DNA of 24,650 nucleotides from a virus. Position numbers and translations under genes: made by a program. Location of the stretch: UHGV virus genome UHGV-0200293. One strand, written 5' to 3'. Of the stretch, positions 1 to 21,381 are shown piece after piece (position 1 is the stretch's first letter; each line of letters starts with the position of its first letter). The notes below the pieces were generated by a model that worked only from the letters and a program-made list of their open reading frames with translations, searched no databases and was not told where the DNA came from.

Positions 1-271
1 CGGATTGTATGTATCTAATTTTTCTGGCTATGTTGTTGGGATATTGTTCAGTTACGTCCTTAACACATATTTTACTTTCTCGTCAAAGCCATCATTCAGA
101 AGGTTGGTTAAGTTCATTGTATGTTGTGCAGCCTGCTACGTCATCAATCTCATAGCCATGAAAACAACTATAGCATTTGGTTTTGAAAATAAATATTTAA
201 TCCAGCTGGCAGGGATGTTTTTCTATACAATCTCTGGTTTTTTAATTAATAAACTCTGGGTAATGAAATAA
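1..271 (+). CDS. gtrA: GtrA-family bactoprenol-linked glucose flippase, C-terminal 88-89 codons (5' end outside window)
   Basis: Small hydrophobic protein ending in stop that overlaps the gtrB ATG; gtrA-gtrB-gtrC order. Confidence 0.75.
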   Translation, partial: GLYVSNFSGYVVGILFSYVLNTYFTFSSKPSFRRLVKFIVCCAACYVINLIAMKTTIAFGFENKYLIQLAGMFFYTISGFLINKLWVMK

Positions 272-1227
272 TGAAAGCGCCTGTTCTTTCCATTGTTGTG
301 CCTTGCTATAATGAGCAAGATGTTTTTAGCCTTTGTCTTAATGAGTTATCATCTCGTATGAGTGAAATGAAAGACAAAGGGAAAATAGATAGAGAAAGTC
401 ATATAGTCTTTGTTGATGATGGAAGCAAAGATAATACCTGGCGATTAATAGAAGAAGCATCAAGTGACAGTTGTCTGGTGAAAGGGGTAAAACTTTCACG
501 AAATAAAGGCCATCAGACTGCATTGATGGCAGGGTTATCATCATGCACTACATCTGACATTACTGTAAGTATTGATGCTGACTTGCAAGATGACACCGCT
601 GTGATTGAAAAAATGGTTGACTCCTATCTCTCTGGTCACGACATAGTATACGGAGTAAGGAACGACAGAACCTCAGATAGTTTTTTTAAGAAGTTTACAG
701 CAGAAGCATTCTATAAGGTAATGACCAGGCTTGGTGTAAATCAGGTTGAAAATCATGCTGATTTTAGGCTGTTAAGTCGAAGGGCGCTCAACTCCCTTTT
801 ACAGTATAAAGAACAAAACCTATATATTCGGGGTCTTATCCCCCTGATCGGATATCCAAGTGATAAAGTGTACTATTCTCGTCATGAGCGAGCGGCAGGA
901 GAATCAAAGTACCCGCTCAGAAAAATGCTGGCTCTTGCCCTTGAAGGAATCACATCGTTCTCAGTAACTCCGTTGAGGATCGTAACCGCTTTAGGTTTTA
1001 TTATCTCTATACTTTCATCAATTGGAGTTATATATACTCTTGCCCAGTATTTTCTTGGACATACTGTTAGTGGATGGGCGTCGATGATTTTAGCTGTACT
1101 ATTTATAGGTGGAGTTCAAATGCTCTGCCTTGGTGTGATTGGCGAGTATATTGGTAAGATATATATTGAAAGTAAAAAAAGACCAAAGTTTTTTATTTCT
1201 GAGGTAACGGAAAATGACAAAGAATAA
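271..1227 (+). CDS. gtrB: GtrB bactoprenol glucosyltransferase (GT2 family)
   Basis: N-terminus MKAPVLSIVVPCYNEQDVF, DxD-type GT2 core, two C-terminal TM helices; 318 aa. Confidence 0.9.
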   Translation: MKAPVLSIVVPCYNEQDVFSLCLNELSSRMSEMKDKGKIDRESHIVFVDDGSKDNTWRLIEEASSDSCLVKGVKLSRNKGHQTALMAGLSSCTTSDITVSIDADLQDDTAVIEKMVDSYLSGHDIVYGVRNDRTSDSFFKKFTAEAFYKVMTRLGVNQVENHADFRLLSRRALNSLLQYKEQNLYIRGLIPLIGYPSDKVYYSRHERAAGESKYPLRKMLALALEGITSFSVTPLRIVTALGFIISILSSIGVIYTLAQYFLGHTVSGWASMILAVLFIGGVQMLCLGVIGEYIGKIYIESKKRPKFFISEVTENDKE

Positions 1228-2914
1228 TAAAGTATATTTTATATCCTTTGTGATTGTGTTAGTTTTAGCTCTGTTAAATGTGCATGTATTCATGGGTAAT
1301 GAACAGAGCGTGTACTTTTGGGACTCCAAAAATTTTTGGATGCAATGGATGAGATACGCCGATCTGTTGTTCCAGAGCCCGTTGGACTGGGGCATGTCTG
1401 TTTATACAACAGTAACAAAGGATGACTATAACGCTCTGTCTACAGCATTATTATTTCCATTTAAATTTCTGCCCATCGACTCAAGAAGTGCTTACATATA
1501 CGCTATAACCATTACATATTTAATCCCTGTAATTTTATTGGCAACATTTATTTTATTAAAAATATTTGAAAACAAGTCAGCATTCTATGTAATAACAACA
1601 GCTATTCTTGTTGTATTATATACTCCATTCTGGAAACCAACTCTTAGAGGTTTGCCTGATGTTGTCGGACTGATACCTATTCTCTGTGTGATTTATTTTA
1701 CGATAAAAAATAACTTATCAAACAGAGTATTGTTATTTAAATCAGTTTTTCTCGGCATTCTGTTATGGATGCCATTTGCATTTAGAAGATGGTATATATT
1801 TACGGTCATCACCTTATATATAACCTTGCCTTTTTTTGTGGCTTATTATCATGATGTTAAGTTTAAGTTCGAGTTAAACAAAGCAAAAAACATATTGATT
1901 AACTTTTTCATCTCAGGAATAATCACTGTTGCCCTTGCATTATTAATTCAGAAAGAGTTAATAGCCAGAATAATATCTACAGATTACTCAACCATGTATT
2001 CAGCTTACCAATATGGATTCTCAAAATCACTTATGGTGATTTTTGGAGATATTGGTTTGTTTATGATGCCATTTTTTATATTTGGCATAATTAGTGCCAT
2101 TTCAAACATTAAAACAAAGCAAAGCGTTTTTGTTCTTTTCTCTGCTTTCTCGTTTGTTATCAGTGTACTATTATTTACTGGTACTCAGACACCCGGCATT
2201 CATCATGTTCTACCATTCTCTCTGTGGTTCTTGTTTGTTTCTATTTTTGGGCTAAATTACATATCATCATTATTCAAGAGCAAGGATGCCGAACATTCTT
2301 TACTTACCATAATTATGGTAGGCATGACGCTTATATCTGTTAGCACTTTTAACAAACCATTCCCTTCTTATAAAAATGGCTTCCATATATTTCCTGATGG
2401 ATTATACCCATATAAAGTTTCCAATTTCGACGAGTACAAAAGGCTGAGTGATAGACTTGTAGCCCTTACGAATAGTGGCGATAAAATATCTGTATTTAGC
2501 TCTAACTACATCTTAAATGATGATATGTTACTTACAATATCTAATTTCAAGCTTACCCCTCGTGTATTCCGTGTATCTCAAGTAGATTTGCGCGATAAAC
2601 TCAGGATGGAAGCTTTCTCCACAAAATATGTTGTGGTTACTAACCCCATACAGTTGCATTTAAACAAGGACGGACAAAGGGTCATCTCTTACCCTGCGAC
2701 CTTATTGTTAAATAGAAAAGGTATAGGTTCGGCATATAAAAAACTTGATGAAAAATATCAACTAAGTAAAGGGGTTTCTGCATATATCTATGAAAAGCAG
2801 AGGCCATTTACTGAGTCTGAGTCCCAAGATTTTATAAAAAACATAGTTAATATGTACCCTCAATGGAATGAACTATACAATAATGCTAAGACATTAAAAT
2901 TATTATCTGAATAA
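1214..2914 (+). CDS. gtrC: GtrC-type serotype-specific O-antigen glucosyltransferase, polytopic membrane protein
   Basis: 566 aa, many TM segments, overlaps gtrB end by 14 nt; third gene of the gtr operon. Confidence 0.65.
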   Translation: MTKNNKVYFISFVIVLVLALLNVHVFMGNEQSVYFWDSKNFWMQWMRYADLLFQSPLDWGMSVYTTVTKDDYNALSTALLFPFKFLPIDSRSAYIYAITITYLIPVILLATFILLKIFENKSAFYVITTAILVVLYTPFWKPTLRGLPDVVGLIPILCVIYFTIKNNLSNRVLLFKSVFLGILLWMPFAFRRWYIFTVITLYITLPFFVAYYHDVKFKFELNKAKNILINFFISGIITVALALLIQKELIARIISTDYSTMYSAYQYGFSKSLMVIFGDIGLFMMPFFIFGIISAISNIKTKQSVFVLFSAFSFVISVLLFTGTQTPGIHHVLPFSLWFLFVSIFGLNYISSLFKSKDAEHSLLTIIMVGMTLISVSTFNKPFPSYKNGFHIFPDGLYPYKVSNFDEYKRLSDRLVALTNSGDKISVFSSNYILNDDMLLTISNFKLTPRVFRVSQVDLRDKLRMEAFSTKYVVVTNPIQLHLNKDGQRVISYPATLLLNRKGIGSAYKKLDEKYQLSKGVSAYIYEKQRPFTESESQDFIKNIVNMYPQWNELYNNAKTLKLLSE

Positions 2915-2942
2915 AAACAGGCCGCGAACGCGGCCTGTTTTT
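2913..2942. terminator. Bidirectional intrinsic terminator between gtrC and the convergent phage late operon
   Basis: AAAAA-CAGGCCGCG-AA-CGCGGCCTG-TTTTT: GC hairpin flanked by A-run and T-run, placed between two convergent stop codons. Confidence 0.7.
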
Positions 2943-3750
2943 ACACTATCGTCCCAGTACCATTTTTCCATACTGATCCGGTCCATGTTATAGCGTAACC
3001 TAAAGTTGTATCTAATATCTGCGCACCTGCGTCAACAAGACCAAGGGCGGGCCTTCCTGCGGTAGTAAAACTTGGCAGGCGCGGAGGCTTTACAAAGTTA
3101 ACAGAGTTAGCTGTTCCAAAACATGTAATACTAGCTGTAGTTAACTGTACTGTATATGTATTAGACCAAGCCCAGCGAGTTGTTCCATCATAATATCCAT
3201 TTGCAATTTTGTTATCAAATGTAGCTGGAGTAACTTCAACACCAGTAACAGCGATTGAATCAGCCACTTCGAACACCACGGTGTCAGCGTCGTAAACTTT
3301 CCACTCACCAGAGAAAGTGGAAATGTCGTTGGTCCCGAAGTCTCCAGACCATGACGTGGTATTCATGTAGCCCTGAATGTAGGTGCCAGCGTTCTCACCA
3401 GCGAAGTCGAAGCGTACCCAAAGGTTAGGCTGCCGACCTGCCTGCACTTCATCAAAGATGTACTTCGACAGACGCCACGCGCCGATCTCGTTATCTTTAT
3501 CCGACTTGCGAAACTCACCTTCACCGGAGATCGTCAGATCCATGTTGTTGACCAGGTTCTCCACCAGCCCTTTAGCATCATCTGCTTCGGAGTTGATGGT
3601 GTTCATCGAATAGTCGATGCCCTTGGTCGTCATAGCGCCGAGACGCTTCCACTCGGAAAGCGCTGGCACTGCGTCGGGGCAGCCAAAGGCCATGCGTAGC
3701 ACAGTTACTTTCCCGATCAGCTTGCCAAAATCATTAGCACAGCCTTGCAT
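2941..3750 (-). CDS. Phage major tail (tube)-like protein with C-terminal extension; last gene of the late operon
   Basis: 269 aa; N-terminal region (LGAMTTKGIDYSMNT...DLTISGEGEF) resembles TP901-1-type tail tube proteins from memory; RBS GAGAGG 5 nt before ATG. Confidence 0.4.
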   Translation of the reverse strand: MQGCANDFGKLIGKVTVLRMAFGCPDAVPALSEWKRLGAMTTKGIDYSMNTINSEADDAKGLVENLVNNMDLTISGEGEFRKSDKDNEIGAWRLSKYIFDEVQAGRQPNLWVRFDFAGENAGTYIQGYMNTTSWSGDFGTNDISTFSGEWKVYDADTVVFEVADSIAVTGVEVTPATFDNKIANGYYDGTTRWAWSNTYTVQLTTASITCFGTANSVNFVKPPRLPSFTTAGRPALGLVDAGAQILDTTLGYAITWTGSVWKNGTGTIV

Positions 3751-3765
3751 GTGTACCTCTCAAAT

Positions 3766-3789
3766 AAAAAAGGCCGCCGGATGGCAGCC
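3766..3789 (-). terminator. Intrinsic terminator (minus strand) upstream of the tail-tube-like gene
   Basis: Minus-strand RNA GGCUGCC-AUCC-GGCGGCC followed by UUUUUUAUUUG. Confidence 0.55.
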
Positions 3790-3809
3790 TGATGGGTTGG
3801 TGATGGGGG

Positions 3810-4016
3810 CTATTCGCCGTAAACGCACATGAACTGAAGTCGGAAGACCAATCGTCCCTCTTCAGTCAGGAGTGGTGCTGGCATATTCCCGAGGTTTTGA
3901 ATCAGGCCAAGGCACTCATCGGCAATGTCGTTCTGTTCGACATAATTGATGATTTCCTATGCCTTTTCTGCTGCTGGGCGACGATTACGTACTCGTTCGT
4001 ACATTGGAGGAGTCAT
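3810..4016 (-). pseudogene. Small late-region gene interrupted by in-frame amber codon
   Basis: ATG overlaps upstream stop (ATGA); 19 codons, TAG at 3957-3959, then 48 more in-frame codons to TAG at 3810-3812. Confidence 0.45.
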
Positions 4017-4381
4017 AACGACATTTCCTTGGCGATTGCAGCGTCTATCTGTCGCCGGGTTTCTTCGAAACCTTTAGTAAGAAATTCTTTCTTGGCCGTT
4101 GCCCGGCGGAAGTTCTGCGGTACATTCGGATCATGGACATAAACGGCGTAGTTAGCAGTGTATCCAACGCGCCCAGTAACACGATTTCCGTTCACCGTAA
4201 TCTCTCTGAATTGGCTGTTTATGAGGGTTGAAGTATCAATTGGTGTATACAGAGCCGCCTGCGTTCCGCCTATAATCAAAGCAGATTGCATAGCACGAAC
4301 GACTTTTCTCCCCTGTATATCACCAACAATAGTGTTCAGGTGCCTCTTCGCCTAGTTGACGCCCTTCACTTTGATGCCCAT
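4013..4381 (-). pseudogene. Late-region (head-tail joining or tail completion?) gene interrupted by in-frame amber codon
   Basis: RBS GGAG-AAAAA-ATG at 4379-4381; MGIKVKGVN, TAG at 4352-4354, then 112 in-frame codons; ORF track only reports the part from the internal ATG at 4291. Confidence 0.55.
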
Positions 4382-4397
4382 TTTTTCTCCAGGCAAT

Positions 4398-4419
4398 AAA
4401 AAAGGCCGCCTTAGCGACC
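4398..4419 (-). terminator. Intrinsic terminator (minus strand)
   Basis: Minus-strand RNA GGUCGC-UAAG-GCGGCC followed by UUUUUUAUUGCC. Confidence 0.55.
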
Positions 4420-4437
4420 TTATCTGAATGCGTTGTG

Positions 4438-4611
4438 CTACTTATACATGATGCTGATTTCTTTTGAATCCTCTGACTCTTTCCATTCCAACTGAATGAG
4501 AAGAGACGGATCATTACGAATTAGCTCTGCAATTTCATTAAGCTTATCCGCAACAACTCCCGCTGACTCTGGAGTGAAATTACCAGTGTTGTAACCGCTG
4601 ACTTCAGACAT
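4438..4611 (-). CDS. Hypothetical small protein (57 aa), candidate accessory insert
   Basis: Not in ORF track (under 60 aa); RBS GAGAGGA 5 nt before ATG; ends just before a terminator. Confidence 0.4.
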   Translation of the reverse strand: MSEVSGYNTGNFTPESAGVVADKLNEIAELIRNDPSLLIQLEWKESEDSKEISIMYK

Positions 4612-4657
4612 AAATTCCTCTCAACGCGTGGGTTTAGAAGACTCTATCATACTCCCG

Positions 4658-4999
4658 TCAGGATGGCGTAATCATCCGCCAGGCGTTCGAACGTGTCGGC
4701 GTAGCGGATATAACCTGGCGCACCTCGTCGGCACCGGCCACAACCGGGTCTGCTTCAGTCGAAACCCCAATCAGCAGGTAATCACCAGCGGCCGCCAGCG
4801 CAAACTCCGTCCAGACGGTATTCTTCACGACGATTTCAGCGCCCAGGCTGGCTAGCTTCTTGCTGAGTCCGCCCTCGTAATCACAGATGATTTGCTCAGG
4901 TTCGGCATAGCCTAGCGGGTCGCCGTATTCGTCATTGCCTTCCAGTTTGCGCCAGATGGTCGCCGTGGCGGTATAGCTCCACGAAGCAATGCTCGACAT
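4658..4999 (-). CDS. Phage head-tail joining / tail completion-like protein (113 aa)
   Basis: Start MSSIASW overlaps the upstream stop (TGATG); position after head-completion genes. Confidence 0.4.
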   Translation of the reverse strand: MSSIASWSYTATATIWRKLEGNDEYGDPLGYAEPEQIICDYEGGLSKKLASLGAEIVVKNTVWTEFALAAAGDYLLIGVSTEADPVVAGADEVRQVISATPTRSNAWRMITPS

Positions 5000-5172
5000 C
5001 AGCCCTCCTTCCAGCGCAGCACCTTCGCGCCGGTCGCCCGGATGCGCGGGCAGTTGATGAACCACTCGCCATCCGATTTCACGTGGCCAGTCGTCTCCCG
5101 CCCGGTGTCGGTCATCACCCAGACGCGGGTGAAAGAGCGCGGCAGCCCGTGCTTAACTGATTTGTACGTCAT
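4999..5172 (-). CDS. Small phage structural-module protein (57 aa)
   Basis: ATG overlaps upstream stop and its own stop overlaps the next ATG; not in ORF track because of size. Confidence 0.35.
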   Translation of the reverse strand: MTYKSVKHGLPRSFTRVWVMTDTGRETTGHVKSDGEWFINCPRIRATGAKVLRWKEG

Positions 5173-5552
5173 CAGCAGCCTCCGACCACCATGAACAGGC
5201 CGACGCTGCTCCCGGCGCTGATTGGCAGGTCGCCGGTGCAGCCGCTGGTATCGAGTTTCGCCAGTGAGTCGCGCAGCCAGTTGATGCTGTCGTCGCCATA
5301 TTCAAACGAGCGGGACGCGCCAGACGGAGCGCCCTGCGATTTGATGCGACGCGCGCCGGACGACGTAGCCATCAATGCGGCGGCGTACATCAGGATCAGC
5401 TTCGCGGTGCACTCGTCATACCCCGCGCCATCGAGGCATGGGATAATCTTGTTCACTACGCAGAGGATCGGCTCCAGCAGCGAGCCCGGAATGGAGTAAC
5501 CCAATTCACCGGGGAACGCCTGCACGTCTGCCGCTGTGATTGGGTCAGCCAT
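5172..5552 (-). CDS. Phage head-tail adaptor / head completion-like protein (126 aa)
   Basis: Position directly downstream of the capsid gene block; tightly packed with neighbours. Confidence 0.4.
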   Translation of the reverse strand: MADPITAADVQAFPGELGYSIPGSLLEPILCVVNKIIPCLDGAGYDECTAKLILMYAAALMATSSGARRIKSQGAPSGASRSFEYGDDSINWLRDSLAKLDTSGCTGDLPISAGSSVGLFMVVGGC

Positions 5553-5554
5553 GG

Positions 5555-5761
5555 TTATTTACCCTTCTTCGCTTTGGTTTTCGGCTCTGCTGGAGCGGCA
5601 ACCTCAATATGACGCTCTCCGCCATCGATCACCTCAACCAGACCAGTAGATTCCCAGCGTTCCGCAACATCATCGCTAACCTCTAACGTCATGCCAACCT
5701 CCAACTTCTGGAGATTGGCACCGGAAAAGAGGTTAGATGAGACCACTTTTACCAGTGCCAT
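5555..5761 (-). CDS. Small phage head-module protein (68 aa)
   Basis: RBS AAGGGGG before ATG; lysine-rich C-terminus; sits between capsid and adaptor genes. Confidence 0.4.
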   Translation of the reverse strand: MALVKVVSSNLFSGANLQKLEVGMTLEVSDDVAERWESTGLVEVIDGGERHIEVAAPAEPKTKAKKGK

Positions 5762-5841
5762 GCCGCCCCCCCTTAGCTCGAAGCGAAAACGACAGAGAAG
5801 TGACCGTTGATGTCCTGCTTAACCATCAGGCCAGCTGCACC

Positions 5842-6852
5842 CTAGGTACGCCAGACATAATCGCTGTTATAGAAGAGGCGCGGGTCGGCTACTGTGCCGA
5901 ACGCCTGACCAATAATGGGGGCAATAACTCCAGCACCCAGCGGAACAATCAGGATCTGGTTGCCGGTCAACTGAGCATCTTCTTTTACTGCGGAAATACC
6001 AGATAACTTCAGAATCTCTTCCAGCACGGTGCGGGTTTTATTCTGAGTGTCGTAGTACTGCTCGAGGTTGGACATGATTTCTGCCGACACATGCCAGGTC
6101 TGCTGGCCATACTGATAGTTTTGAAGCTTCAGTACATCGCGCAGCGCAATCGCGGCAGCACGCATAGCGTCTGGATCAGTGCTGGTCGCGAAGTTTACTG
6201 TCAGTGTTACCTGAGCAACGCGCTCGTCCGCCTGCAGCCCTTTCCAGGTATAGTCATCAAATTTGATGAAATTGCCTTCGCTGTCGCGAAAACCATTCCA
6301 GATATAGTCCACATACTGACGGCGAACATCATCAACAGAGCCTGCCTGAGCGTCAGACAGTGATGCCAGAGCGGAACCTTTGTTGAATACCGGATCACGC
6401 CAGTTGAACTTAAAGCCGCTGTCATGGATCGACACCATCGTTCCGTCAAAGGTGTAGCTTTTCGCGTCCAGAGCGGCACCAATCTGACCTGACATAGAAG
6501 TGTGAGCCCAGCCTCGTCCGCCTTTGCGGGCATACTCGTACACTGATTCTTCCAGACGAACGGAACGGGACAGCGGCATCAGATCATTCAGTAGCGTAAA
6601 CTCTGTGGTCGGCTCAAACTCGGCCAGTACTGTCTGGTCATACGCTTTATACAGTCGGCGGATATCGTCTACTGCATTAACAACATCCAGTACAGGGGCG
6701 TTGGATGCCTCACCACGAAATTGCGCGCGGGAGATGAAATCTGCCACAGCCTGAGCGCTAGCATTGCGTGCGAATTGCAACTCCTGAAACTGAGCCTGGT
6801 TGGCCTCAAAGTTTCGGGTCTCCTTCGCCTTTTTCATAGAAAATGCAAACAT
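5842..6852 (-). CDS. Major capsid protein
   Basis: 336 aa; follows scaffold and decoration genes in canonical order. Confidence 0.6.
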   Translation of the reverse strand: MFAFSMKKAKETRNFEANQAQFQELQFARNASAQAVADFISRAQFRGEASNAPVLDVVNAVDDIRRLYKAYDQTVLAEFEPTTEFTLLNDLMPLSRSVRLEESVYEYARKGGRGWAHTSMSGQIGAALDAKSYTFDGTMVSIHDSGFKFNWRDPVFNKGSALASLSDAQAGSVDDVRRQYVDYIWNGFRDSEGNFIKFDDYTWKGLQADERVAQVTLTVNFATSTDPDAMRAAAIALRDVLKLQNYQYGQQTWHVSAEIMSNLEQYYDTQNKTRTVLEEILKLSGISAVKEDAQLTGNQILIVPLGAGVIAPIIGQAFGTVADPRLFYNSDYVWRT

Positions 6853-6863
6853 TCAGTCTCTCC

Positions 6864-7307
6864 TTACTTGAATACGACGCGAACCAGATCGCCAGCAGCA
6901 GCGGTCAGCGCTTTGTCTTCTTCTACATATGCGAACACAGTGTCAGGCGTTTCGCCTGTAGTCGTTGCCAGTTTGATCCGACCATTGTCCACGGCAACCG
7001 GATCGCCTTTTGAGTACGTTCCCGCCGCTGCTCGCAAATTGAGGAACACACCAGGAGTGGGGTGAAATGCAACTACCCAGTCACCAGCGGCGATTGTATC
7101 GTCTACTGTTTTGCAGCGCAGGTAGTCATAGTTGGCAACGTAGTGAATTGCTGCTTCTGAGCCATCGGTTGAAGCAGTGAACTTACCATCAACAAAAATA
7201 CCGACAGTACCTGGCTGAGTGGCTGCCGCAGCAGCACCTTCGCGATGAAGTTGCGGGTTAGCGAAAATGCCGCCCGCGTGAATTACGTGTTTTCCGTCTT
7301 TAGCCAT
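6864..7307 (-). CDS. Head decoration-like protein (DUF2190-like)
   Basis: 147 aa Ala/Gly-rich protein between scaffold and capsid genes. Confidence 0.45.
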   Translation of the reverse strand: MAKDGKHVIHAGGIFANPQLHREGAAAAATQPGTVGIFVDGKFTASTDGSEAAIHYVANYDYLRCKTVDDTIAAGDWVVAFHPTPGVFLNLRAAAGTYSKGDPVAVDNGRIKLATTTGETPDTVFAYVEEDKALTAAAGDLVRVVFK

Positions 7308-7310
7308 TTT

Positions 7311-8507
7311 TTACTCCGGCATTTCGCTGACTGATTGGGTATTGGTAGCCTGGTTGCGGAATGCACCGTTCAGGCCGAAAGATGTCTGGCACTTGGCGTA
7401 CATGGCGTCGAGCGCCTTACCGTCCAGATCTGCAACTTCGTCGTCGCTCATGTTTATTGCCAGCTTTACAGCGGCGCGCTTTTCGCCTTTCTCTTTGTCA
7501 GAGTTGGCATTGATCTGGCTATTAATTGCGGAGACCTGCTCAGTAAGGACCTTCGCCCACGCTGGCATCTCTTCGCTGTTGGTGGTCTGCTCTTTAGCCT
7601 TCTTGTCTTCCGCTTCTTTCTTCTCACGGGCGGCCTTCTCTTCAGGCGTTTCTTCTTTGCTGCCGGCGTTTTCTGCCAGCATTTGGTTGTATGCGTCCAT
7701 CAGTTCGGCATCGGTTTTACCGTCAACCGATTTACCTTTGGCCTTCAGCGCATTAACGATGAGCTCTTTCATCGGGTCTGTTTCCTTCTGGGTTGAATCG
7801 CTGTTGGCGCCGAATAACGCCTTTAGCTGGTTGAAAAATGATTTGAATGCGGGGTCTTGCTGGTCTGGGGAATTGGACTCTTCGAGATTGACGACCTCGA
7901 TTTCGACTTCATCACCCTCAGCATTTACGAAGATGCCCACGCCCTCCTCCGGCGTTCCGGCGCCAGGCTCATCAAGCAGCACCGCCACATGGTCGAACAT
8001 CATGTTGGTGGCGATCTCGTTGTACTTCTTGCCCTTCGATTCGCCGTTGGCGGCTATGCCGGAATACAGCAGGCCGGTAGAAATGTGAATCGGGTCGGAG
8101 TTGGTGCCGGCCAGCATCTCATCCAAACGGTTAATCAGGCGCTTGCTCTTGTCGCTGGACTCGGCGTACTGGCGGTTAACGTACATGTCGCCCATCACCT
8201 TCCCGTCCTTGTGGCTGACGTTCTGAAGCCATGCCCCGACGTGGTACTCATTCACTGCCCGGACATCACGTGCCGACACATGCTTGCCGTCCACTTTCGG
8301 GTGGCCCAGCGGCATCGGGTTACGCTCGAGCGTGTTGTAGGCCTTTTCGATTTCTGCTGCCGGGTACAACTTCCGGTTCATCACGATATCGTCCACGACA
8401 GGCGTGATGCCGCGAACCACGATATGTGGCTTGCCGTCGATGGTTTCAGTGGTGATGTTTGAAGCGGAGTTGACGACGGTCAGCACGTTAACGCGGTTGC
8501 GTTTCAT
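7311..8507 (-). CDS. Capsid scaffolding/maturation protein (DUF2213-like N-terminus, charged coiled-coil C-terminus)
   Basis: 398 aa; C-terminal KEEK/AEDKKAKE low-complexity stretch; lies between MuF-like and capsid genes. Confidence 0.5.
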   Translation of the reverse strand: MKRNRVNVLTVVNSASNITTETIDGKPHIVVRGITPVVDDIVMNRKLYPAAEIEKAYNTLERNPMPLGHPKVDGKHVSARDVRAVNEYHVGAWLQNVSHKDGKVMGDMYVNRQYAESSDKSKRLINRLDEMLAGTNSDPIHISTGLLYSGIAANGESKGKKYNEIATNMMFDHVAVLLDEPGAGTPEEGVGIFVNAEGDEVEIEVVNLEESNSPDQQDPAFKSFFNQLKALFGANSDSTQKETDPMKELIVNALKAKGKSVDGKTDAELMDAYNQMLAENAGSKEETPEEKAAREKKEAEDKKAKEQTTNSEEMPAWAKVLTEQVSAINSQINANSDKEKGEKRAAVKLAINMSDDEVADLDGKALDAMYAKCQTSFGLNGAFRNQATNTQSVSEMPE

Positions 8508-8539
8508 GCTGGGGTCCTCATTGGTAGATTTCAGGCAAT

Positions 8540-8562
8540 AAAAAAGGCCGCCGAAGCGACCC
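8540..8562 (-). terminator. Intrinsic terminator (minus strand) ending the head-module insert
   Basis: Minus-strand RNA GGGUCGC-UUCG-GCGGCC followed by UUUUUUAUUGCC; near-identical to the 4398-4419 terminator. Confidence 0.5.
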
Positions 8563-8586
8563 TATATGCATTTGGTTTTAATTAGC

Positions 8587-8775
8587 TTAAGCAAAGGAAA
8601 TAGGCATTTCCATAAAGCTATCTAATGTTTCTGCCTTTCCATTTAAAGCAGACGGGGAAGGAACTTGAGCCAAAGATGCTGCAAAGAAGCTGGACTCCTC
8701 TAGGGCCTGCATAGCATTTTTGCGCAGCTCAGGGCTCATAGAGTCAAGTATTTCTTGAACAGTTCTCATTTTCAC
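8587..8775 (-). CDS. Hypothetical small protein (62 aa), accessory insert
   Basis: RBS GGAGGTGA before ATG; AT-rich; second gene of a two-gene cassette. Confidence 0.45.
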   Translation of the reverse strand: MKMRTVQEILDSMSPELRKNAMQALEESSFFAASLAQVPSPSALNGKAETLDSFMEMPISFA

Positions 8776-8838
8776 CTCCAGTTAACAACATATGTAGTCT
8801 ACTACCTTCAATCTCAACGTTCCACAACATATTAATGA

Positions 8839-9408
8839 TTAATCATCATCAGCCTCAAAATCATGTTGCCCGCGCGATTCTTTTAAACGGCGTAACGTTT
8901 CATCGATGTTTTGAAGCGTAGACTCCATCAAGTCTGATTTTACAAAGTCGAATGAGAGGTGCTTGTAGTAAGGAACAGCGTATGGTAAAGGATTAACCAC
9001 GCGTATCACAGATGCTTTCGCTGTCCTGGCAAAAACAAGAGCAACGTTAAGAGCTACAAAACCCATACGTTTAACAAGATGATCATCATGGACTTGTCGC
9101 TTAAAGTGCTCAATCATATGGATGTTGACCAACTGATTTTCCATATCATAAGAGAACACTGCGGCACCGATGGTGATCGGTGGTCTACCCTTTGAGGATA
9201 CCGACAAGGTAAACTTGTTGGTAAGATTTTCGTGTTCATTTTGGAACCAACCGCTCCAATCCAGCACTTTTCCACGAAGGCTTTCAATCTGTAGCGCGTC
9301 AGCTTCACTTAAAAAATTGAGAGATAATTTTATTTCTAAAGCATCAAGTTCTTGCTGAGTTGAAACTAGCGCAAGTTCATTAACAACTTCGATTTCTTGC
9401 CGGTTCAT
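8839..9408 (-). CDS. Hypothetical protein (189 aa), accessory insert
   Basis: AT-rich ORF inserted between MuF-like and scaffold genes; acidic C-terminus; no family recognised. Confidence 0.5.
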   Translation of the reverse strand: MNRQEIEVVNELALVSTQQELDALEIKLSLNFLSEADALQIESLRGKVLDWSGWFQNEHENLTNKFTLSVSSKGRPPITIGAAVFSYDMENQLVNIHMIEHFKRQVHDDHLVKRMGFVALNVALVFARTAKASVIRVVNPLPYAVPYYKHLSFDFVKSDLMESTLQNIDETLRRLKESRGQHDFEADDD

Positions 9409-9469
9409 ATGAGTTCATTTTTAAGTTTTTTCTTATGATACCTAATCATACTACCAAAAGTTATTACAA

Positions 9470-10468
9470 TTAAGTCCCTTGCCATGATATTCGTTCTTTC
9501 GCCAACTTTTCCTTCAGCCCTTCATTGAAGATGCTGCCGTCGTCATTGAGTAGCACCGGAATCTGGCTGCAGTAACAGTTGTACCGGTTGCCGTTCTCGG
9601 CGTAGAAGTTGCGCACCTCTTCGGTCGTGTAGACCTTTCCGTGTCGGCTGGCATGCCAGGTGCGCGTCGTTGGCTTGAGCGCTGACAGCCACAGAAGGCC
9701 GGTGTTCAGCCCAAGCCTGTCGGCCGCCCAGTCCGTTTCATTCCACTGCGCCTGCCGCAGCGCGCCGACCTGTTCAGTCTGAGCGATGGTCTTCGCCTTC
9801 GACATCGACACATCGAGGCGCTTGCTGATGACACTGGCAGTCTCACGCGGATTCACTCCCCGCGCCACTGCATCAGTGATTATGTTGGTCAGATCGCCGC
9901 GGGCTGTATCGCTGATGACCTTCCAGTCACTGAACGTTGTCAGCCTGGCCGCCGCTATCTGGTTTAGATATCCGGGGCTGTTTAAAAGCTGCTGTAACGT
10001 CGTCTGGCTGGCGTACACCTGCGACTGCTGCGAGAAGTTGTTGAAGGCCTCCAGCGTACCGCGCCGCGCCTCTGCGGCGACGTAATCCATCGCCCAGAGG
10101 TTTTGCTCGCCGCCATCCAGCAGGTAATCGTCGAGAATGGCCTGCACCGCTTCGAGGAGATCCGCCAGTTCCTGCGCCGACATGTCGTAGATGAACTTGC
10201 CTGCGTTGACCTGGTAGAGCCGCATATCCTCGCCGTTGTCGTGGCACAGGAAATGCCAGTTATGGCTATTAACTTCTCGCTCTATCCCTTTCAGGCGTAG
10301 GTCGAACAGCGCTTTCAGTGCGCGCTTGATGCCGAGATACCGGTCCTCGATATCCCGGTACATCGCTGTTACCTGCTTTGCCGATCGGGTCGGGTCAACC
10401 TTGCTGCGCGGAACTACCGGTGTCCCTACTTTCGTCTTTTGCTCCGGTGTCATCGGAAAGAGGATCAT
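9470..10468 (-). CDS. Phage head morphogenesis protein (Mu F / SPP1 gp7-like); start uncertain
   Basis: 332 aa directly downstream of portal; N-terminal 74 nt overlap portal, so a downstream start is possible. Confidence 0.55.
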   Translation of the reverse strand: MILFPMTPEQKTKVGTPVVPRSKVDPTRSAKQVTAMYRDIEDRYLGIKRALKALFDLRLKGIEREVNSHNWHFLCHDNGEDMRLYQVNAGKFIYDMSAQELADLLEAVQAILDDYLLDGGEQNLWAMDYVAAEARRGTLEAFNNFSQQSQVYASQTTLQQLLNSPGYLNQIAAARLTTFSDWKVISDTARGDLTNIITDAVARGVNPRETASVISKRLDVSMSKAKTIAQTEQVGALRQAQWNETDWAADRLGLNTGLLWLSALKPTTRTWHASRHGKVYTTEEVRNFYAENGNRYNCYCSQIPVLLNDDGSIFNEGLKEKLAKERISWQGT

Positions 10469-11870
10469 CGGTCGTTACCTTTTTATTTGGGTCAGGCGGC
10501 TTAACATCTTCACGCGGCTCAAGTTCTCCTGCTTCCCTGACCTCATTTTCGTCAACAGCCGGTGTGCCATAGGCCTGTTGAGTATCCTTCGCGACTGCCG
10601 CCATTTCCTTCATGGTGGCGATCTTTTCTTTCTCACTTGGCGCGAGTAGATCAGACCAGGTTAACGTGATTTCGCCAGACTTCGGAGGTTCGATAACTTC
10701 CACAGTCCACAGGCGTTCTATAACTGCACTTGCCCGGTCAGTCTGAAACCCGTTGCGGCGACCATTACAGCGCTTGGCAAAGTCATTTTTGTCCTGATCT
10801 GACGCAAGCCTTCCTGTCTGCTGACCAAACAAGATGGTGAAAGGCATCTGAACTGAAGATGAGAACTGGTTAGCTGATACTGTCCATGTTGGGCCAGGAT
10901 CGGCGGCGGCGACAGAGAGTACTTTCGCCTCCCCATCCTGGGTAACCAGAGCGGAATCTGTACCTGAGTTAAGCTTTTGAATAGCAGCATTCAGCGCCTC
11001 AGCTAAGCCTGAATATCCAGTTCTCTTCGCCTCGTCGACGATGGTCTTGAGATTTGTCTCCTTCGACATGTTAATGCCGAGCTGTCTACTGGCGTTCTTC
11101 AGAACCCCTTCCGCACTACCGCCGGACGTTTTCGCCATATCGAGCAGGTCGTTGTAACCAGCTCGCAGGAATGGAATGCCAGCCAGCGACGTTTCATCTT
11201 CTGATCCCTCACAGAACATGATGATGCGTTCTGGGTGAATCTTAATCGACCGCATTGGCCCAGTGATGTTTCCGTTATCGCCGACCTGTTGCTCCTGGAA
11301 ATAGTAAAACTTCGGCATGCCGTAGTCTGGCGACTTTTGGTCCTGCTCAAGCTCACCGGGTTTAACCTGCGCTTCCCATGCAGGAATCATCTTGACCAGG
11401 CCGCGCTCACGAGTGTTTCGCATTACACTGCGGTCGACGGGCTCCCACCATTCCTTGCTGTCTGCAAACTGAAGGGTAAGTGCTGAGTAATGCCCAACCA
11501 GATTTCGCCGATCCGCATCCTTCACTTTCGCCCAATGTTTCTTCATGAGCTTGGTGACTTTCTTTTCCCACGGCGTCGACTTCTTAGACTTCTTCGTCTC
11601 ATCGCCGTCGACGATCACCGGGGTATCGGTCCAGCATGCATCGAGCAATTTATGCACCGCGCCGAACGCCGAGCCGTTACGTTCATACATGTTGTAGAAG
11701 TGGTAAAAGTCGAGTCGCTCCGGGTAACCAAATTCGCACCAGAGATGATATCGTTTCGTGTTACCTGACTTCCCAAGCCCTGATGCATACAACTGGCGTG
11801 CGCGGCCAACCTCGTTAAGGCTGTTCACAATGAGCCCAGCGAGGACTTGCATTTCTGTAGTGTTACTCAC
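10395..11870 (-). CDS. Portal protein
   Basis: 491 aa, acidic C-terminal tail, immediately downstream of terminase large subunit. Confidence 0.6.
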   Translation of the reverse strand: MSNTTEMQVLAGLIVNSLNEVGRARQLYASGLGKSGNTKRYHLWCEFGYPERLDFYHFYNMYERNGSAFGAVHKLLDACWTDTPVIVDGDETKKSKKSTPWEKKVTKLMKKHWAKVKDADRRNLVGHYSALTLQFADSKEWWEPVDRSVMRNTRERGLVKMIPAWEAQVKPGELEQDQKSPDYGMPKFYYFQEQQVGDNGNITGPMRSIKIHPERIIMFCEGSEDETSLAGIPFLRAGYNDLLDMAKTSGGSAEGVLKNASRQLGINMSKETNLKTIVDEAKRTGYSGLAEALNAAIQKLNSGTDSALVTQDGEAKVLSVAAADPGPTWTVSANQFSSSVQMPFTILFGQQTGRLASDQDKNDFAKRCNGRRNGFQTDRASAVIERLWTVEVIEPPKSGEITLTWSDLLAPSEKEKIATMKEMAAVAKDTQQAYGTPAVDENEVREAGELEPREDVKPPDPNKKVTTDDPLSDDTGAKDESRDTGSSAQQG

Positions 11871-11880
11871 TGAGTTGTCC

Positions 11881-13356
11881 TTATGTGAAGAAGATTGCGC
11901 CGACCTGCTTGTGGTTGTTCTTCGCTACCGCAAAGTAGCGGAAGCCGTCAGCACCGTGTGATGTGAAGTCATGAAGCGGTTTATCTTTCCAGCATCCGCG
12001 CTTGTCGTCCCACTCCTTGCGGTAGCCTTCGAGGTGAGATATGCCCTCGGCACACTTCTCCTCATCGGATACACATGATGGGAGGATTTCACGCACCGAC
12101 TCAATGCCGGTATCAACTCCCACTTTCGGAACCACCTGAAACGTCATGCTGTAAACCTGCCCGTCGATTTCATACCCCTCGCGGGCAAGCTCTCTACGGG
12201 ATTTGGCGTCAGCACCGAATTCACGGTTATCGATGTCGTGCGGGCCCCAGTGCTCGTCGTACTCGTAGCCACGGTCTTTCAGCACCTTCATGTAGTGCCT
12301 CAGGCCCTCGCCAGAGTTTTCGTAGTAGTCGATGATGTGAAACTCTTCGCCAACCTCACGAACGAACCAGATAGCCGTAGAATCGCCCACGCCGATATCC
12401 CAGAACGTATGGACCGGAAGGTGCGAGTTGTCCGGGATTTGGCCGATTCGCTTGTTGGTGTAGAGCCAGCGGAATTGTTTGGCGTAGTACGCGCCCTCGA
12501 CAGACTGCTGGAAAGCCTCCGCCGGTATGTTCGGGTATTCGCGCTTCATGTCGTCGCCGAGAGTTTTCTCTTTGGCGTAGTACCATGCTTTCTGGCGCTC
12601 GTTGACGACTACACCATGCTTCGCCTCCATTTCAGCGAAGTACTCAACCAGGCGCACCGGCAGCGATTCAACCGGGTCGATTGCGTACTGCGGGTTCTTC
12701 CACCAGGAGAAGAAGAAAAACTTCCAGTCGAGCGCGGATAATGGCTTGCCTTGCAGCAACGCTTTCTCTGCCGTCTGGCAGTAATCGAAAAAGTACCCCG
12801 CCCGGCCCTCGGCTGTGCTCTCGATAGTAGCGAAGCATCCAGTCGATACCGCTTCAAACGCACCAGTGACGATTTCACGGGCTTTGTCAGGATACTTGGC
12901 GCATATCTTCCCGAACTCGGAAACGTGCAGGTAGCGCAGCGTACCGCCACGAAACGACGTGCTGACGTAGAGTGAGCCGCCCTTCTTAAAGACGAGCTCA
13001 CCGGAAGAGTCGTTGCTAGCCGGGTTGGCCGCCTTTATCTCTGCCGGCAACTTGTCATAGGCATACTTCACCTTTTCCCGAAAGAGGCGCTTTGCATCAT
13101 TCAGTGTGTGGGCGATCAGCGCGCACTTTGCAGACTCGAACAGCGCCGCGTCCAACTGGATGATGCACACCTCAGTTGTGAAACCGAGCTGGCGAGCTTT
13201 CAGGATGATATTACGTATATGGATCCCCTCAAAGTATTTCCGTTGCTCAGGCGTCATCCTGAACCGCGTCGGCTTTCCCTCTTTGTCGGTTATCCAGTAA
13301 AGATTGTTCAGCCGCCAGTCTTTGTCGGCCAGCAGCTTGAGGTGCTCAGGTTTCAT
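11881..13356 (-). CDS. Terminase large subunit
   Basis: 491 aa; start overlaps the small-subunit stop; followed by portal. Confidence 0.7.
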   Translation of the reverse strand: MKPEHLKLLADKDWRLNNLYWITDKEGKPTRFRMTPEQRKYFEGIHIRNIILKARQLGFTTEVCIIQLDAALFESAKCALIAHTLNDAKRLFREKVKYAYDKLPAEIKAANPASNDSSGELVFKKGGSLYVSTSFRGGTLRYLHVSEFGKICAKYPDKAREIVTGAFEAVSTGCFATIESTAEGRAGYFFDYCQTAEKALLQGKPLSALDWKFFFFSWWKNPQYAIDPVESLPVRLVEYFAEMEAKHGVVVNERQKAWYYAKEKTLGDDMKREYPNIPAEAFQQSVEGAYYAKQFRWLYTNKRIGQIPDNSHLPVHTFWDIGVGDSTAIWFVREVGEEFHIIDYYENSGEGLRHYMKVLKDRGYEYDEHWGPHDIDNREFGADAKSRRELAREGYEIDGQVYSMTFQVVPKVGVDTGIESVREILPSCVSDEEKCAEGISHLEGYRKEWDDKRGCWKDKPLHDFTSHGADGFRYFAVAKNNHKQVGAIFFT

Positions 13357-13958
13357 TACGCCCCCTGAGACAGTGAATCCATCAGGTCAGACAGTTGCTT
13401 AACAGAGTTGTCGCCTTCTGGCCCGTCGATATCGCAGGCCTGGCGTTCAAGTCCGATCAAGTTCTTCAGCGCGTCGCTCAGAGCCTTCACTGACTTAACT
13501 CGCTCCGGCATGCTGATGACCTTGTGGTAAATCTCATTGAGCTTGTCCTGGCCTTTGTCGTCGGGGTCGAGCATCAACTCTCCGAGCTTCTCCAGTGCGG
13601 CCACATCTGCGCACTCTGCGCCCAGCTCATCAAACAGCGCATTGGTTATCTGGCGTGCTCGCTTAATGTCACCGCGATGCTCCATGCGGACATTGGCTAT
13701 TACCTCAGCCGTCGCCTCGATGAGTACGCGTTCGTTAAAAGTGACTTCACTGCGTACCTGCTTGCGTACCTCTGCTTTGCGTACCAGATCGTCAGCGCGT
13801 TCTTTCACTTTCGCATTCAGGTCACGTGACCAGTCGTCACGCTTGGCACGCTTACGGATAGCGCCTTCGCTGATGCCGTGTTGAGATGCTATTTCTCGGA
13901 GAGACATCACCCCGGCCCGGTACGCCGTCTCGATGGCCTCCCAGTCGGGTTTGCTCAT
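13356..13958 (-). CDS. Terminase small subunit (HTH DNA-binding)
   Basis: 200 aa; N-terminal HTH-like SLREIASQHGISEGAIRKRAKR; first gene of the packaging module. Confidence 0.6.
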   Translation of the reverse strand: MSKPDWEAIETAYRAGVMSLREIASQHGISEGAIRKRAKRDDWSRDLNAKVKERADDLVRKAEVRKQVRSEVTFNERVLIEATAEVIANVRMEHRGDIKRARQITNALFDELGAECADVAALEKLGELMLDPDDKGQDKLNEIYHKVISMPERVKSVKALSDALKNLIGLERQACDIDGPEGDNSVKQLSDLMDSLSQGA

Positions 13959-14042
13959 GCCTTTTTCCTATTAAAATATTTCCATTGATGACCTATATTA
14001 AGAAGGAAGTAACCTGTCATCTATGCTACCAGGAGATTCTCG

Positions 14043-14231: not shown

Positions 14232-14292
14232 ATTTATTAGCGACCTATTCAAAAACTGCCATTACGATGGGTCTGCTCATGGTGATGGCAAT

Positions 14293-14804: not shown

Positions 14805-14811
14805 CCATTGT

Positions 14812-16473: not shown

Positions 16474-16484
16474 GAAACAACAAT

Positions 16485-16567: not shown

Positions 16568-16596
16568 AATATATGCGTTTCAGTTCGGTTTTGCAA
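16568..16596 (-). promoter_or_regulatory. Candidate sigma-70 late promoter (pR-prime analogue) at the 3' end of the Q-like gene
   Basis: Minus strand TTGCAA-17 nt-TATATT; position matches lambda pR-prime just after Q. Confidence 0.35.
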
Positions 16597-17263
16597 GACT
16601 TACATTCGAATTTGTCGCCTTTTGTTGTAAACGTGATCGCGTTACGGAGATAAGCGCATCATTATCGAGCCGCTTAAAGACATTACGCAGTGCCAACCAG
16701 TGAGGCAGGTACGTCTCTGTCCAGGTGGATTTAGCTACGCCCACCAGCTCAGCCAGCTTCTGGTACTCGTACGTCTCGCGGCCGCACAGCTCTGCTTTGA
16801 CGTCCTGCGCCGCCAACCAGATTAACGCCCGGAGTCGCTCCAGCGTTTTTCCGGCGATTTTCTTGCCAGCGAGTTGCGCCGTAAACTTATTCCATGCCCA
16901 GCGGGTTATGTCGACCTGATATTCAAACCGAGTATTTTCACTGTAGCTCCAGAGCAACTAGGCTTTTTGATGCTCGTCGAGCGACATTAGCGCCCGACGC
17001 CATGAAGCAGTGGAGTATTCAACCGGCTGCACCAGCGGGATATGCGATCCTTTGGCGTGTGATTGTTTTCCGGGGATCGGAGGGTTGTTCAGCGTTATCA
17101 GTTTTCCCGTAACTTCATCGCGTACACGCAACCTCTTGCGGGGGTAAGTATTCGTATCGAACTGCGCGTTCTCCAGCCAGGCCATTAACTGACCCTTTGT
17201 CGCTCCGCTCAGATCTGCCGTGGCCGCAATCAGTTGCTGGCGAATATAGGATAAATTTTTCAC
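16580..17263 (-). pseudogene. Late-gene regulator (Q-antiterminator-like by position) interrupted by an in-frame amber codon
   Basis: ORF-track ORFs 16958..17263 and 16580..16957 are contiguous and in frame, separated only by TAG (16958-16960); the distal 125 codons contain no ATG; GTG start with SD GGGGA. Confidence 0.5.
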
Positions 17264-17400
17264 TGATTTTCCCCTGCTTTCTGCTGAATACGGATGTAAT
17301 TGCGAAGGATGCGGTATGCCACCGGAAAAGATCCCCGGTAGCGATAAATGCGGAGACGCAGCCAGCGCAGACGGAGTATCTCGATCACTTCTGGTTTCAT
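17260..17400 (-). CDS. Small ORF (46 aa) translationally coupled to ninG
   Basis: ATG overlaps NinG stop (ATGA); its stop overlaps the Q-like GTG start. Confidence 0.3.
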   Translation of the reverse strand: MKPEVIEILRLRWLRLRIYRYRGSFPVAYRILRNYIRIQQKAGENQ

Positions 17401-17977
17401 GCAGCCTCCTGACGCTTCAACTCTTTGAGTTTTGCCCGGTACTCATCACGAATTCGGATGTAGTCTTCACGTTTCCATTTGGGTAATTCGTGCGGCCCCA
17501 TAAGGGCATCAAAGCGGGCCTGGCTGATTTTGGTGATCAGCGCCGGTCGATAGGCAATTAGGTTTCCTGACAGATGGTTATTGCAGGGGGCGCACTGGCG
17601 ATGACAGTTGTCTTCATTAAACCGCAACTCAGGGTTTGCGCCGGTCGTGCGGAAGTGACCGGCGTGATACTGCCCTTCATGGTGACGCCCACAACTGATG
17701 CATGGCAGATGCCTGTCACGGTAGCGGATGAACTCGTTAAAGGCCTGCTGGGCCTGCTTAATGAAGTAGCTGAGTGGTTTCACTGCCTGACAACGCTCAG
17801 CCAGACGCTTACGTTCGGCCTTCTCCCCCCCAAGTCGGCGCTTTTTATCTTTCCGTTGCTTCTCGGCTTTGGCTGCGTCATTCACGACTAGACGTACTGC
17901 TCATGACGGACCGGGTTAAACCACTCACGGCATACTGTGCATTTTCGGCGAGGGCGCTTTTTCTGATTATTAGCCAT
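17397..17977 (-). pseudogene. NinG/Rap-like recombination protein, frameshifted near the N-terminus
   Basis: Good RBS and ATG at 17975-17977 open a 29-codon frame (RRKCTVCREWFNP...) ending at TAG 17888-17890; the remaining 162 codons (KQAQQAFNEF...LPCISCG...) continue in a different frame from GTG 17885. Confidence 0.5.
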
Positions 17978-17979
17978 AA

Positions 17980-18186
17980 TCACCCCCATCCTTTTTGTCG
18001 GAAGGTTCTCGGCGTCCGCGCCGGACGTTCGCATTCTTGTAATTTCGCGCTGACTGTCCAGGTCAGGAAATCAGGATTGAGGCTCTTTTGGGCTCTGACG
18101 CCGCGAGACTGATAATCGGCAATCAGGCGCTCTGCCTGCTCGGTGGTGCATTCCGTGTGATGAAAATATGAATACTTCATCGCCAT
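17980..18186 (-). CDS. Small nin-region protein (68 aa)
   Basis: ATG overlaps upstream stop (TGATG); ORF-track ORF extends upstream into the neighbouring gene. Confidence 0.4.
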   Translation of the reverse strand: MAMKYSYFHHTECTTEQAERLIADYQSRGVRAQKSLNPDFLTWTVSAKLQECERPARTPRTFRQKGWG

Positions 18187-20405: not shown

Positions 20406-20810
20406 ATGATAAAATTTTTAATGTTGATTGTGGTGACATTAACCATTGCAGGTTGCTCCCCTCTTGCACCTACAGGCTGTCAGAAAAAAAACGCAATGGA
20501 ATCATGCGAATATAAGAGTTCAGGTAAAGTGTCGGATAAGGATATATATGGATGGTACTCATCCAGAATAAAAAAAGCTTTGGACGCAGCACTTACAGAG
20601 CCCCATGCCTGGAATGGTAAAAGATGTGACGCTCATCTGGATTTCAAAGTCGATGGCACCCTGCAAAATTTTATCGTGAAAGGTGGTGACAAAGATTATT
20701 GCGCTGCATTGCAAAAAGCTTCTGAAAGAGCGACATTCCCGGCGTTTACCGATCGGAGAGTTTACTTTAATATGGGTTCCGCAAGATGGAACTTCGAAGG
20801 TCAGCCATGA
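20406..20810 (+). CDS. Lipoprotein with TolA C-terminal (domain III)-like domain
   Basis: Signal peptide with lipobox LTIAGC; C-terminus GKRCDAHLDFKVDGTLQNFIVKGGDKDYCAALQKA...FPAF aligns with E. coli TolA GKTCTLRIKLAPDGMLLDIKPEGGDPALCQAALAAA...IPKPP (from memory). Confidence 0.6.
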   Translation: MIKFLMLIVVTLTIAGCSPLAPTGCQKKNAMESCEYKSSGKVSDKDIYGWYSSRIKKALDAALTEPHAWNGKRCDAHLDFKVDGTLQNFIVKGGDKDYCAALQKASERATFPAFTDRRVYFNMGSARWNFEGQP

Positions 20811-21093
20811 AAACTATGGTGCGCCGGGAGATCCCCGGCGTTCTCAACCTGAGAAAAAACCATTTTCACTTCTGCTGGTCAAACAGCTTCCTCAACATCC
20901 ACCAGCAGCAGGTTTTCCAGCTCTATAATCCGATTGGTGGTGTATTGCAGAAGTTGATCCATCATGCCTCCTGCTGCGGTGCTGCTGGCAGTGGCATCCA
21001 GTGAGTTGGCTTGCAATAAACACCACCACCATTCGGAAGTGATGCAAACCTAAACCATCCATCTGTTTCATTGTGCTCAATGTATCCGACCAT

Positions 21094-21381
21094 CTACTCT
21101 TTCTTATCAGCGCAGTAAACCTGAACATCAACATCGCGATCCGGCATCCGCTCGCTTACCGGAATCCATCTGCCTGGCAACTTGTAAGCGTCACTTACAG
21201 GTTCATCGTTCTGAGCATCACGCAGAGCACAAAAGACTTTATTACGCAATTCGTTGAACTCGTCAGAGCGAATAACCCTGCGCCAGTCCAGCGCATGAGC
21301 GTACAGGAAATCACTGGCGAGGTTAGCACCACGACCAGCGCGCAGGAATCGGCAACTAACGTTGATGCCGTTGCCGACGAT
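21094..21381 (-). pseudogene. Remnant of a DUF551-like phage early gene (no start codon, truncated)
   Basis: Minus-frame translation ...LDWRRVIRSDEFNELRNKVFCALRDAQNDEPVSDAYKLPGRWIPVSERMPDRDVDVQVYCADKKE* is open without any usable start; W-I-x-V-S-E-R-M-P motif resembles DUF551. Confidence 0.3.

Follow-up and report, generated by a model that had tools for sequence, protein, structure and literature searches.

The stretch of DNA analysed here (24,650 bp; referred to throughout as the window) comes from a Citrobacter koseri chromosome, and its products are recorded under C. koseri names. It carries the remnant of a defective prophage that lies between purB and phoP, a position at which it has become fixed in a C. 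koseri lineage. An integrase gene (22264-23550) adjoins phoP at one end and gtr genes adjoin purB at the other, a layout repeated both in a metagenome scaffold (L058) that is 100% identical to window positions 1-16852 and in a complete C. koseri chromosome (CP052059.1), which we call the sister strain (L073). The structural module is related to those of Cobrasixvirus-like siphoviruses of Enterobacter, Klebsiella and Citrobacter. Intact prophages that are ~99% identical to the window across the two adjacent late genes from which the analysis starts, gene 1 and gene 2, were found by exact-protein look-up (L059-L064). Relatives of these two genes in E. coli genomes are distant only, at 90-92% identity over parts of them, and among species-representative genomes the best identity is 86%.

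At the purB end, gtrA (partial), gtrB and a 566-aa gtrC-like gene (together 5-2914, plus strand; O-antigen glucosylation) are intact and run convergently with a truncated tail gene, which suggests that the gtr operon is retained by selection while the phage around it decays. The gtrC of the sister strain has 1-bp indels that may be sequencing errors.

The genes and premature stops on which the argument turns are the following.

2941..3750, minus strand: truncated major tail (tube) gene, residues 1-177 being 98.9% identical to a 251-aa protein of intact relatives
3810..4016, minus strand: gene 2, pseudogene of a phage tail terminator (PF23842), 68 codons compared with 127 in orthologues
3957..3959, minus strand: amber 2, codon 20 of gene 2, GCA TAG GAA from GCA CAG GAA
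4013..4381, minus strand: gene 1, pseudogene of an HK97 gp10-family tail-completion protein, 122 codons, the full length of intact orthologues
4352..4354, minus strand: amber 1, codon 10 of gene 1, AAC TAG GCG from AAC CAG GCG
4645..4999, minus strand: 116-codon head-tail gene with a 2-bp TA insertion at ~4711 that shifts the frame close to the 3' end
5773..6852, minus strand: major capsid gene (DUF6260 family), 359 codons expected, 336 before the amber
5842..5844, minus strand: amber 3, in the capsid gene, ACC TAG GGT from ACC TGG GGT
16580..17263, minus strand: Q pseudogene, phage antiterminator Q (PF06323), 227 codons
16958..16960, minus strand: amber 4, codon 102 of Q, GCC TAG TTG from GCC TGG TTG
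17397..17989, minus strand: NinG pseudogene, 31 N-terminal and 162 C-terminal residues lying in different frames
20801..20965, minus strand: small gene joined to the DUF551 gene by an ATGA overlap, in-frame TGA at 20881..20879
20962..21249, minus strand: fragment of a DUF551-domain gene, in-frame TAG at 21096..21094 (AAA GAG TAG ATG)

Gene 1 begins on the minus strand at an ATG (4381..4379) behind GGAGAAAAA and reads through nine sense codons to a TAG (4354..4352), after which it stays open for 112 codons up to a TGA at 4015..4013. Full-length orthologues of 122 aa, 95-99% identical and recorded under the name 'HK97 gp10 family phage protein', occur in C. koseri. Four relatives that are ~99% identical have AAC CAG GCG at the amber site and, with 54 more distant loci included, the column holds CAG in 32 of 56 homologues. 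The substitution turns CCAGG into CTAGG, the altered base being the inner C of a Dcm site. This TAG is common to the window and the sister strain, and a 92-aa fragment of gene 1 is encoded on 11 contigs (NCBI, ENA, Logan).

Gene 2 starts inside an ATGA overlap at 4016 and comprises 19 sense codons, a TAG (3959..3957), 48 open codons and a second TAG (3812..3810). The latter is the natural terminator of the gene, which is TAG in the window and also in the intact orthologues of two relatives (L059 and L062). The in-frame TAGs of both genes had been described in a sequence-only reading of the window, and the positions, codon counts and ATGA overlap that it gave are reproduced here. Overlooked in that reading was a 177-bp in-frame deletion between 3984 and 3983: in alignments against the 127-aa orthologues, 59 of the 127 codons are gone from the middle of gene 2, and its Pfam match covers profile positions 70-125 only. 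The same deletion is present in the sister strain. Four intact relatives (L059, L060, L062 and L064) read GCA CAG GAA at the amber site, where CAG fills the column in 31 of 52 loci; the ancestral context, ACAGG, is no Dcm site. Amber 2 is restricted to the window lineage, as the sister strain has CAG at this position despite carrying the same remnant with the same deletion, and the 68-aa allele with Gln is found on 4 contigs.

Terminator-like hairpins followed by T runs (4402-4421 and 3771-3790, minus strand) flank gene 1 and gene 2 within the late operon. The hairpin after gene 2 is kept in intact relatives, and the sequence before gene 1 is kept in part. Both could be candidate sites that need Q-mediated read-through.

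Premature stops elsewhere in the prophage were sought by tblastn of the relatives' proteins against the window, with the matches read frame by frame. The major capsid gene is interrupted by amber 3: homologues of 359 aa align past the stop at 85-94% identity, 23 conserved codons lie beyond the TAG before the gene closes at a TAA, and the position is Trp in 32 homologues. Intact 359-aa versions occur in C. koseri. Here CCTGG has become CCTAG, the altered G being the one that pairs with the inner C of the Dcm site on the opposite strand. Amber 3, too, is confined to the window lineage, the sister strain having ACC TGG GGT there in its own copy of the remnant. In public records the 336-aa capsid product is carried as 'major capsid protein'.

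The Q gene, when translated through its stop, matches the Pfam Phage_antiter_Q profile with E = 2e-100 over profile positions 1-218. Trp is invariant at the amber position in 13 homologues, GCC TGG is read in 8 loci, and the change from CCTGG to CCTAG again falls on a Dcm inner position. The sequence-only reading had already counted a Q-like gene among those interrupted by TAG. The sister strain shares this TAG and has in addition an 8-bp deletion beside it, at window position 16963. Comparison with related phages, which that reading had put forward as the way to check its claim, thus returns CAG for gene 1 and gene 2 and TGG for Q.

A further in-frame TAG lies in the DUF551 fragment, in which positions 2-68 of the 68-position profile run across the stop; it is common to the sister strain, which is identical there. 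Phage homologues of this fragment are <50% identical, too divergent to give the ancestral codon of its TAG. The small gene that overlaps it carries a TGA, GTT TGA CCA from GTT TGG CCA, at a position that is Trp in 4 of 4 homologues (57-76% identity). This TGA is not at a Dcm site and is also common to the sister strain, identical there. The tally of premature stops in the prophage accordingly stands at five TAG (gene 1, gene 2, Q, capsid and DUF551) and one TGA. The sequence-only reading had listed three premature stops as all those of the prophage, every one of them amber with none TAA or TGA; that list lacks the capsid and DUF551 TAGs, and the TGA at 20881..20879 contradicts its second part. 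It had also proposed that an equal mix of stop types among other pseudogenes would speak against anything special to amber, and here a mixture does exist, but a weak one that consists of the single TGA.

Each of the interrupted reading frames is one intact gene in the relatives: gp10 with 122 aa, the terminator with 127, the capsid with 359, Q with 227-229 and NinG with 202. Natural gene boundaries at the TAGs of gene 1, gene 2 and Q are ruled out, the orthologues being single genes with sense codons at those positions.

Nonsense codons are one class of lesion among several. The NinG gene matches its Pfam profile at positions 2-33 in one frame and 40-192 in the other, and tblastn likewise returns two pieces in different frames; the split thus reflects a small deletion with a frameshift. 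A 116-aa protein (L074) matches the head-tail gene of the window in two frames with the last ~20 codons shifted. The responsible TA insertion is restricted to the window lineage, being absent from the sister strain and from intact relatives, and intact copies of 116 aa are common. What is left of the tail tube gene, which encodes an Ig-domain major tail protein, is an open reading frame (269 aa) made up of 177 tube residues fused to 92 unrelated codons; for this 92-residue C terminus, neither the phage collection nor the fetched loci gave a match outside copies of this remnant. One guess is that it represents the end of a tail fibre gene. Public records name the 269-aa fusion 'DNA breaking-rejoining protein', which looks like a mis-annotation. 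Compared with the intact prophages (L059-L064), all tail genes downstream of the tube gene are absent, namely the DUF6246 gene (probably the tail chaperone gene of the relatives), the tape measure, the distal tail and the fibre genes. On the early side recT is truncated, the immunity and replication region has been deleted, and no repressor or replication genes are left.

Three other features of the remnant were seen. A DUF2213-type scaffold/protease-like gene (7311-8507, minus strand) has 398 codons compared with 462-465 in the closest relatives and is without an internal stretch of ~79 residues, in frame; the gap may be a deletion or natural variation in linker length. Between this scaffold gene and a Mu F-like gene lies a 189-aa open reading frame (8839-9408, minus strand) with no convincing family match and no counterpart at that position in three intact relatives (L059, L060 and L064). 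Inside the degraded early region and in the opposite orientation, a 134-aa lipoprotein-like open reading frame (20406-20810, plus strand) encodes a TolA C-terminal domain (Pfam E = 9e-11) and is possibly a moron, for example one for superinfection exclusion.

The sister strain allows the order of these events to be read. Its remnant occupies the site seen in the window and likewise has both the fusion open reading frame and the 177-bp deletion; the two also share the TAGs of gene 1, Q and DUF551 as well as the TGA. The sister strain also has losses of its own, amounting to ~7 kb (window 8490-15544: head morphogenesis, portal, terminase and lysis genes). Because it independently lost these ~7 kb and the 8 bp beside the Q amber, a single remnant is decaying along separate paths in different strains. 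The gene 2 and capsid ambers are younger than the loss of the tail genes and of the 59 codons, and arose in an already dead element, because the sister strain has the same deletions and yet retains CAG and TGG at the two sites. Indels of 1-2 bp are numerous in the sister sequence, which may come from long reads, but other contigs back the CAG and TGG alleles that it shows. Between the window and the sister strain there are 243 differences, clustered in recombined tracts, of which 13 fall in low-divergence stretches, too few for a mutation spectrum.

This order bears directly on an amber-suppressing background, the second possibility that the sequence-only reading had raised. Under such a scenario the prophage would have been grown in, or have come to depend on, a host that reads TAG as an amino acid, with the interrupted genes still working. 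The predominance of TAG among the premature stops (5 of 6) is what it would lead one to expect, and the ancestral Gln at two of the ambers could be restored by a supE-type suppressor. Ambers that arose in an already broken gene, however, cannot reflect suppressor dependence, and the sister strain, in which the deletions are already present, lacks those of gene 2 and the capsid. Two of the ambers, in the capsid gene and Q, stand for Trp. Suppression could not mend the frameshifts, the TGA, the 177-bp deletion or the loss of the tail module; a scan of all 24,650 bp with ARAGORN turned up no tRNA gene; and the amber excess itself is not significant (see below). The unrepairable lesions, the late origin of two ambers, the TGA and the lack of a tRNA in the window together contradict the suggestion, and we regard dependence on suppression as very improbable.

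In a related scenario, TAG would be read as sense in the late genes, through reassignment or programmed read-through, much as some phages have recoded it to Gln. It would fit with the presence of TAGs in late and structural genes and in the late-gene activator Q, and with the two TAGs at which Gln is expected. Set against this, each gene has one TAG, with five in ~5600 codons, and sister alleles that are 99-100% identical have CAG or TGG instead; two of the TAGs occupy Trp positions, and no suppressor tRNA is present in the window. TAG also serves as the natural terminator of gene 2, in the window as in two intact relatives. Enterobacterial hosts, moreover, use the standard code, which counts against recoding. 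The CAG and TGG alleles of near-identical copies refute this explanation, and we give it almost no weight.

How far the preponderance of TAG needs explaining depends on how often it would be produced by mutation alone. As a background set, we took 5612 prophage codons with the inferred ancestral codons restored and counted the single transitions that make a stop. There are 470 such transitions, of which 260 produce TAG, 141 TGA and 69 TAA, so that P(TAG) = 0.553. Against this expectation the excess of ambers gives p = 0.17 for 3 of 3, p = 0.09 for 4 of 4 and p = 0.17 for at least 5 of 6; by itself it is unremarkable and not beyond chance.

The sequence context of the ambers is more distinctive. 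Four have a known ancestral codon (gene 1, gene 2, capsid and Q), and all four are CAG-to-TAG or TGG-to-TAG transitions, exactly the changes that the sequence-only reading had named when it allowed for ordinary decay, and on this point it is borne out. Three of the four (gene 1, capsid and Q) lie at the inner cytosine of CCWGG or at the G that pairs with it. Dcm inner positions account for 30 of the 470 nonsense transitions (6.4%) and for 30 of the 260 that make TAG (11.5%), giving p = 0.0024 for at least three of five events at Dcm sites and p = 0.0056 for at least three of four ambers, values that are to be taken as indicative for a post hoc hypothesis that involves three events. From the sequence of the site, deamination at Dcm positions can give TAG as its sole stop, never TAA or TGA.

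The means for such changes appear to be present in the host species. C. koseri has a DNA cytosine methyltransferase that is 84% identical to E. coli Dcm over its full length, and the orthologue is found on hundreds of contigs, including chromosomes of 4.6-4.9 Mb. The E. coli Dcm query used for this search is itself 99-100% identical to E. coli entries that bear the name DNA-cytosine methyltransferase. Because of the 84% identity, the C. koseri enzyme is expected to have CCWGG specificity, and we infer that Dcm is active in this lineage. A literature search on Dcm methylation or the methylome in C. koseri returned nothing usable. Very-short-patch repair (Vsr) is expected to fix many of the T:G mismatches that would arise at these sites, which counts against an explanation through Dcm. 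Independent nonsense mutations were also sought in 70 other related loci, which yielded two uninformative cases only.

It could be, then, that ordinary CAG-to-TAG and TGG-to-TAG transitions in a decaying remnant are the whole story, that methylation plays no part and that the Dcm context is a coincidence. The amber excess can be explained without a special mechanism (P(TAG) = 0.553; p = 0.17 for at least 5 of 6), the gene 2 amber and the TGA fall outside Dcm sites, and the Dcm hypothesis was formed post hoc on three events. Yet three of four ambers fall on the CCWGG inner position, compared with 11.5% of TAG-making transitions (p = 0.0056), Dcm is present in the host species, and the mechanism is long established. 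On balance we think coincidence unlikely.

The same motif raises the question of a sequencing artefact, as nanopore reads can be miscalled at methylated CCWGG. In E. coli, CCWGG motifs make up most of the discrepancies between Illumina and nanopore data (PMC8106442), and CCWGG is also where three of the TAGs are found. Against miscalls, the alleles recur in many independent assemblies: the metagenome scaffold matches the window without a difference across 16,852 bp, the 336-aa capsid product and the 269-aa fusion are found on 41 and 45 contigs, respectively (NCBI, ENA, Logan; longest contig 4.75 Mb), and the sister strain also has the TAGs of gene 1 and Q. We find an artefact hardly credible.

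The explanation that we favour, at a probability of roughly 0.8, is that the window holds a decaying prophage remnant whose ambers are ordinary transitions, favoured by codon usage and by the Dcm hot spot. Late genes that are free of selection would gather lesions of every type, and those seen here are deletions of very different size, frameshifts, an insertion of 2 bp and six nonsense mutations. A codon usage rich in CAG and TGG and poor in CAA and CGA directs 55% of the possible stop-making transitions to TAG. The TAGs of gene 1 and gene 2 are C-to-T transitions in Gln CAG codons. The host Dcm would methylate the inner cytosine of CCWGG, and spontaneous deamination of 5-methylcytosine to thymine would then convert CCAGG to CTAGG and CCTGG to CCTAG, with TAG as the only stop that can result. 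We infer this deamination to be the chemical event behind the ambers at Dcm sites.

The mechanism is already-known biology, that of the classic lacI amber hot spot. In lacI, amber hot spots occur at the second C of CCAGG Dcm sites, where they are ~10-fold over-represented (Coulondre et al. 1978, reviewed in PMC12606429). The ambers of the window resemble these in being G:C-to-A:T changes at the second C of CC(A/T)GG that lead to amber, in both the Gln and the Trp forms. They differ in that they are fixed natural mutations in the unselected pseudogenes of a C. koseri prophage, whereas the lacI mutations were selected in E. coli K-12 in the laboratory, and in that the window offers three events, known from sequence alone. 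A further likeness is to laboratory amber (sus) phage mutants, which also have single in-frame TAGs in essential late genes at Gln or Trp positions. Unlike sus mutants or phages with suppressor tRNAs, the window has no suppressor tRNA and carries additional, irreparable lesions; its ambers are also polymorphic among strains, and some arose after inactivation.

As an element, the remnant belongs in the company of the cryptic prophages. The K-12 remnants e14, Rac, DLP12 and Qin are cryptic (defective) lambdoid-type prophages of enterobacteria and, like such elements, the window presents an integrase-bounded remnant at a fixed chromosomal site with vertical inheritance, which has lost whole modules, holds structural and regulatory pseudogenes and has kept accessory genes (gtrABC and the TolA-C lipoprotein gene). 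It is set apart from the K-12 cases by its Cobrasixvirus-like structural module and by its site, purB-phoP in C. koseri.

For annotation, the consequence is that the capsid, gp10, terminator, Q, NinG and DUF551 genes should be recorded as pseudogenes. Beyond the locus the result is of little import, other than that it removes a tempting wrong reading, that of suppressor dependence or recoding. The remnant is a tidy natural case of the Coulondre-Miller Dcm effect, in which the order of decay can be read from sister strains. We raise tentatively, as a possibility that we ourselves rate as somewhat doubtful, that, in Dcm-positive enterobacteria, deamination at Dcm sites is the main single source of nonsense mutations in DNA that is not under selection, such as decaying prophages and other pseudogenes. 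Were this true, natural pseudogene spectra would be skewed to amber at CCWGG, a skew measurable across genomes that could serve to flag relaxed selection, or Dcm and Vsr activity in the wild.
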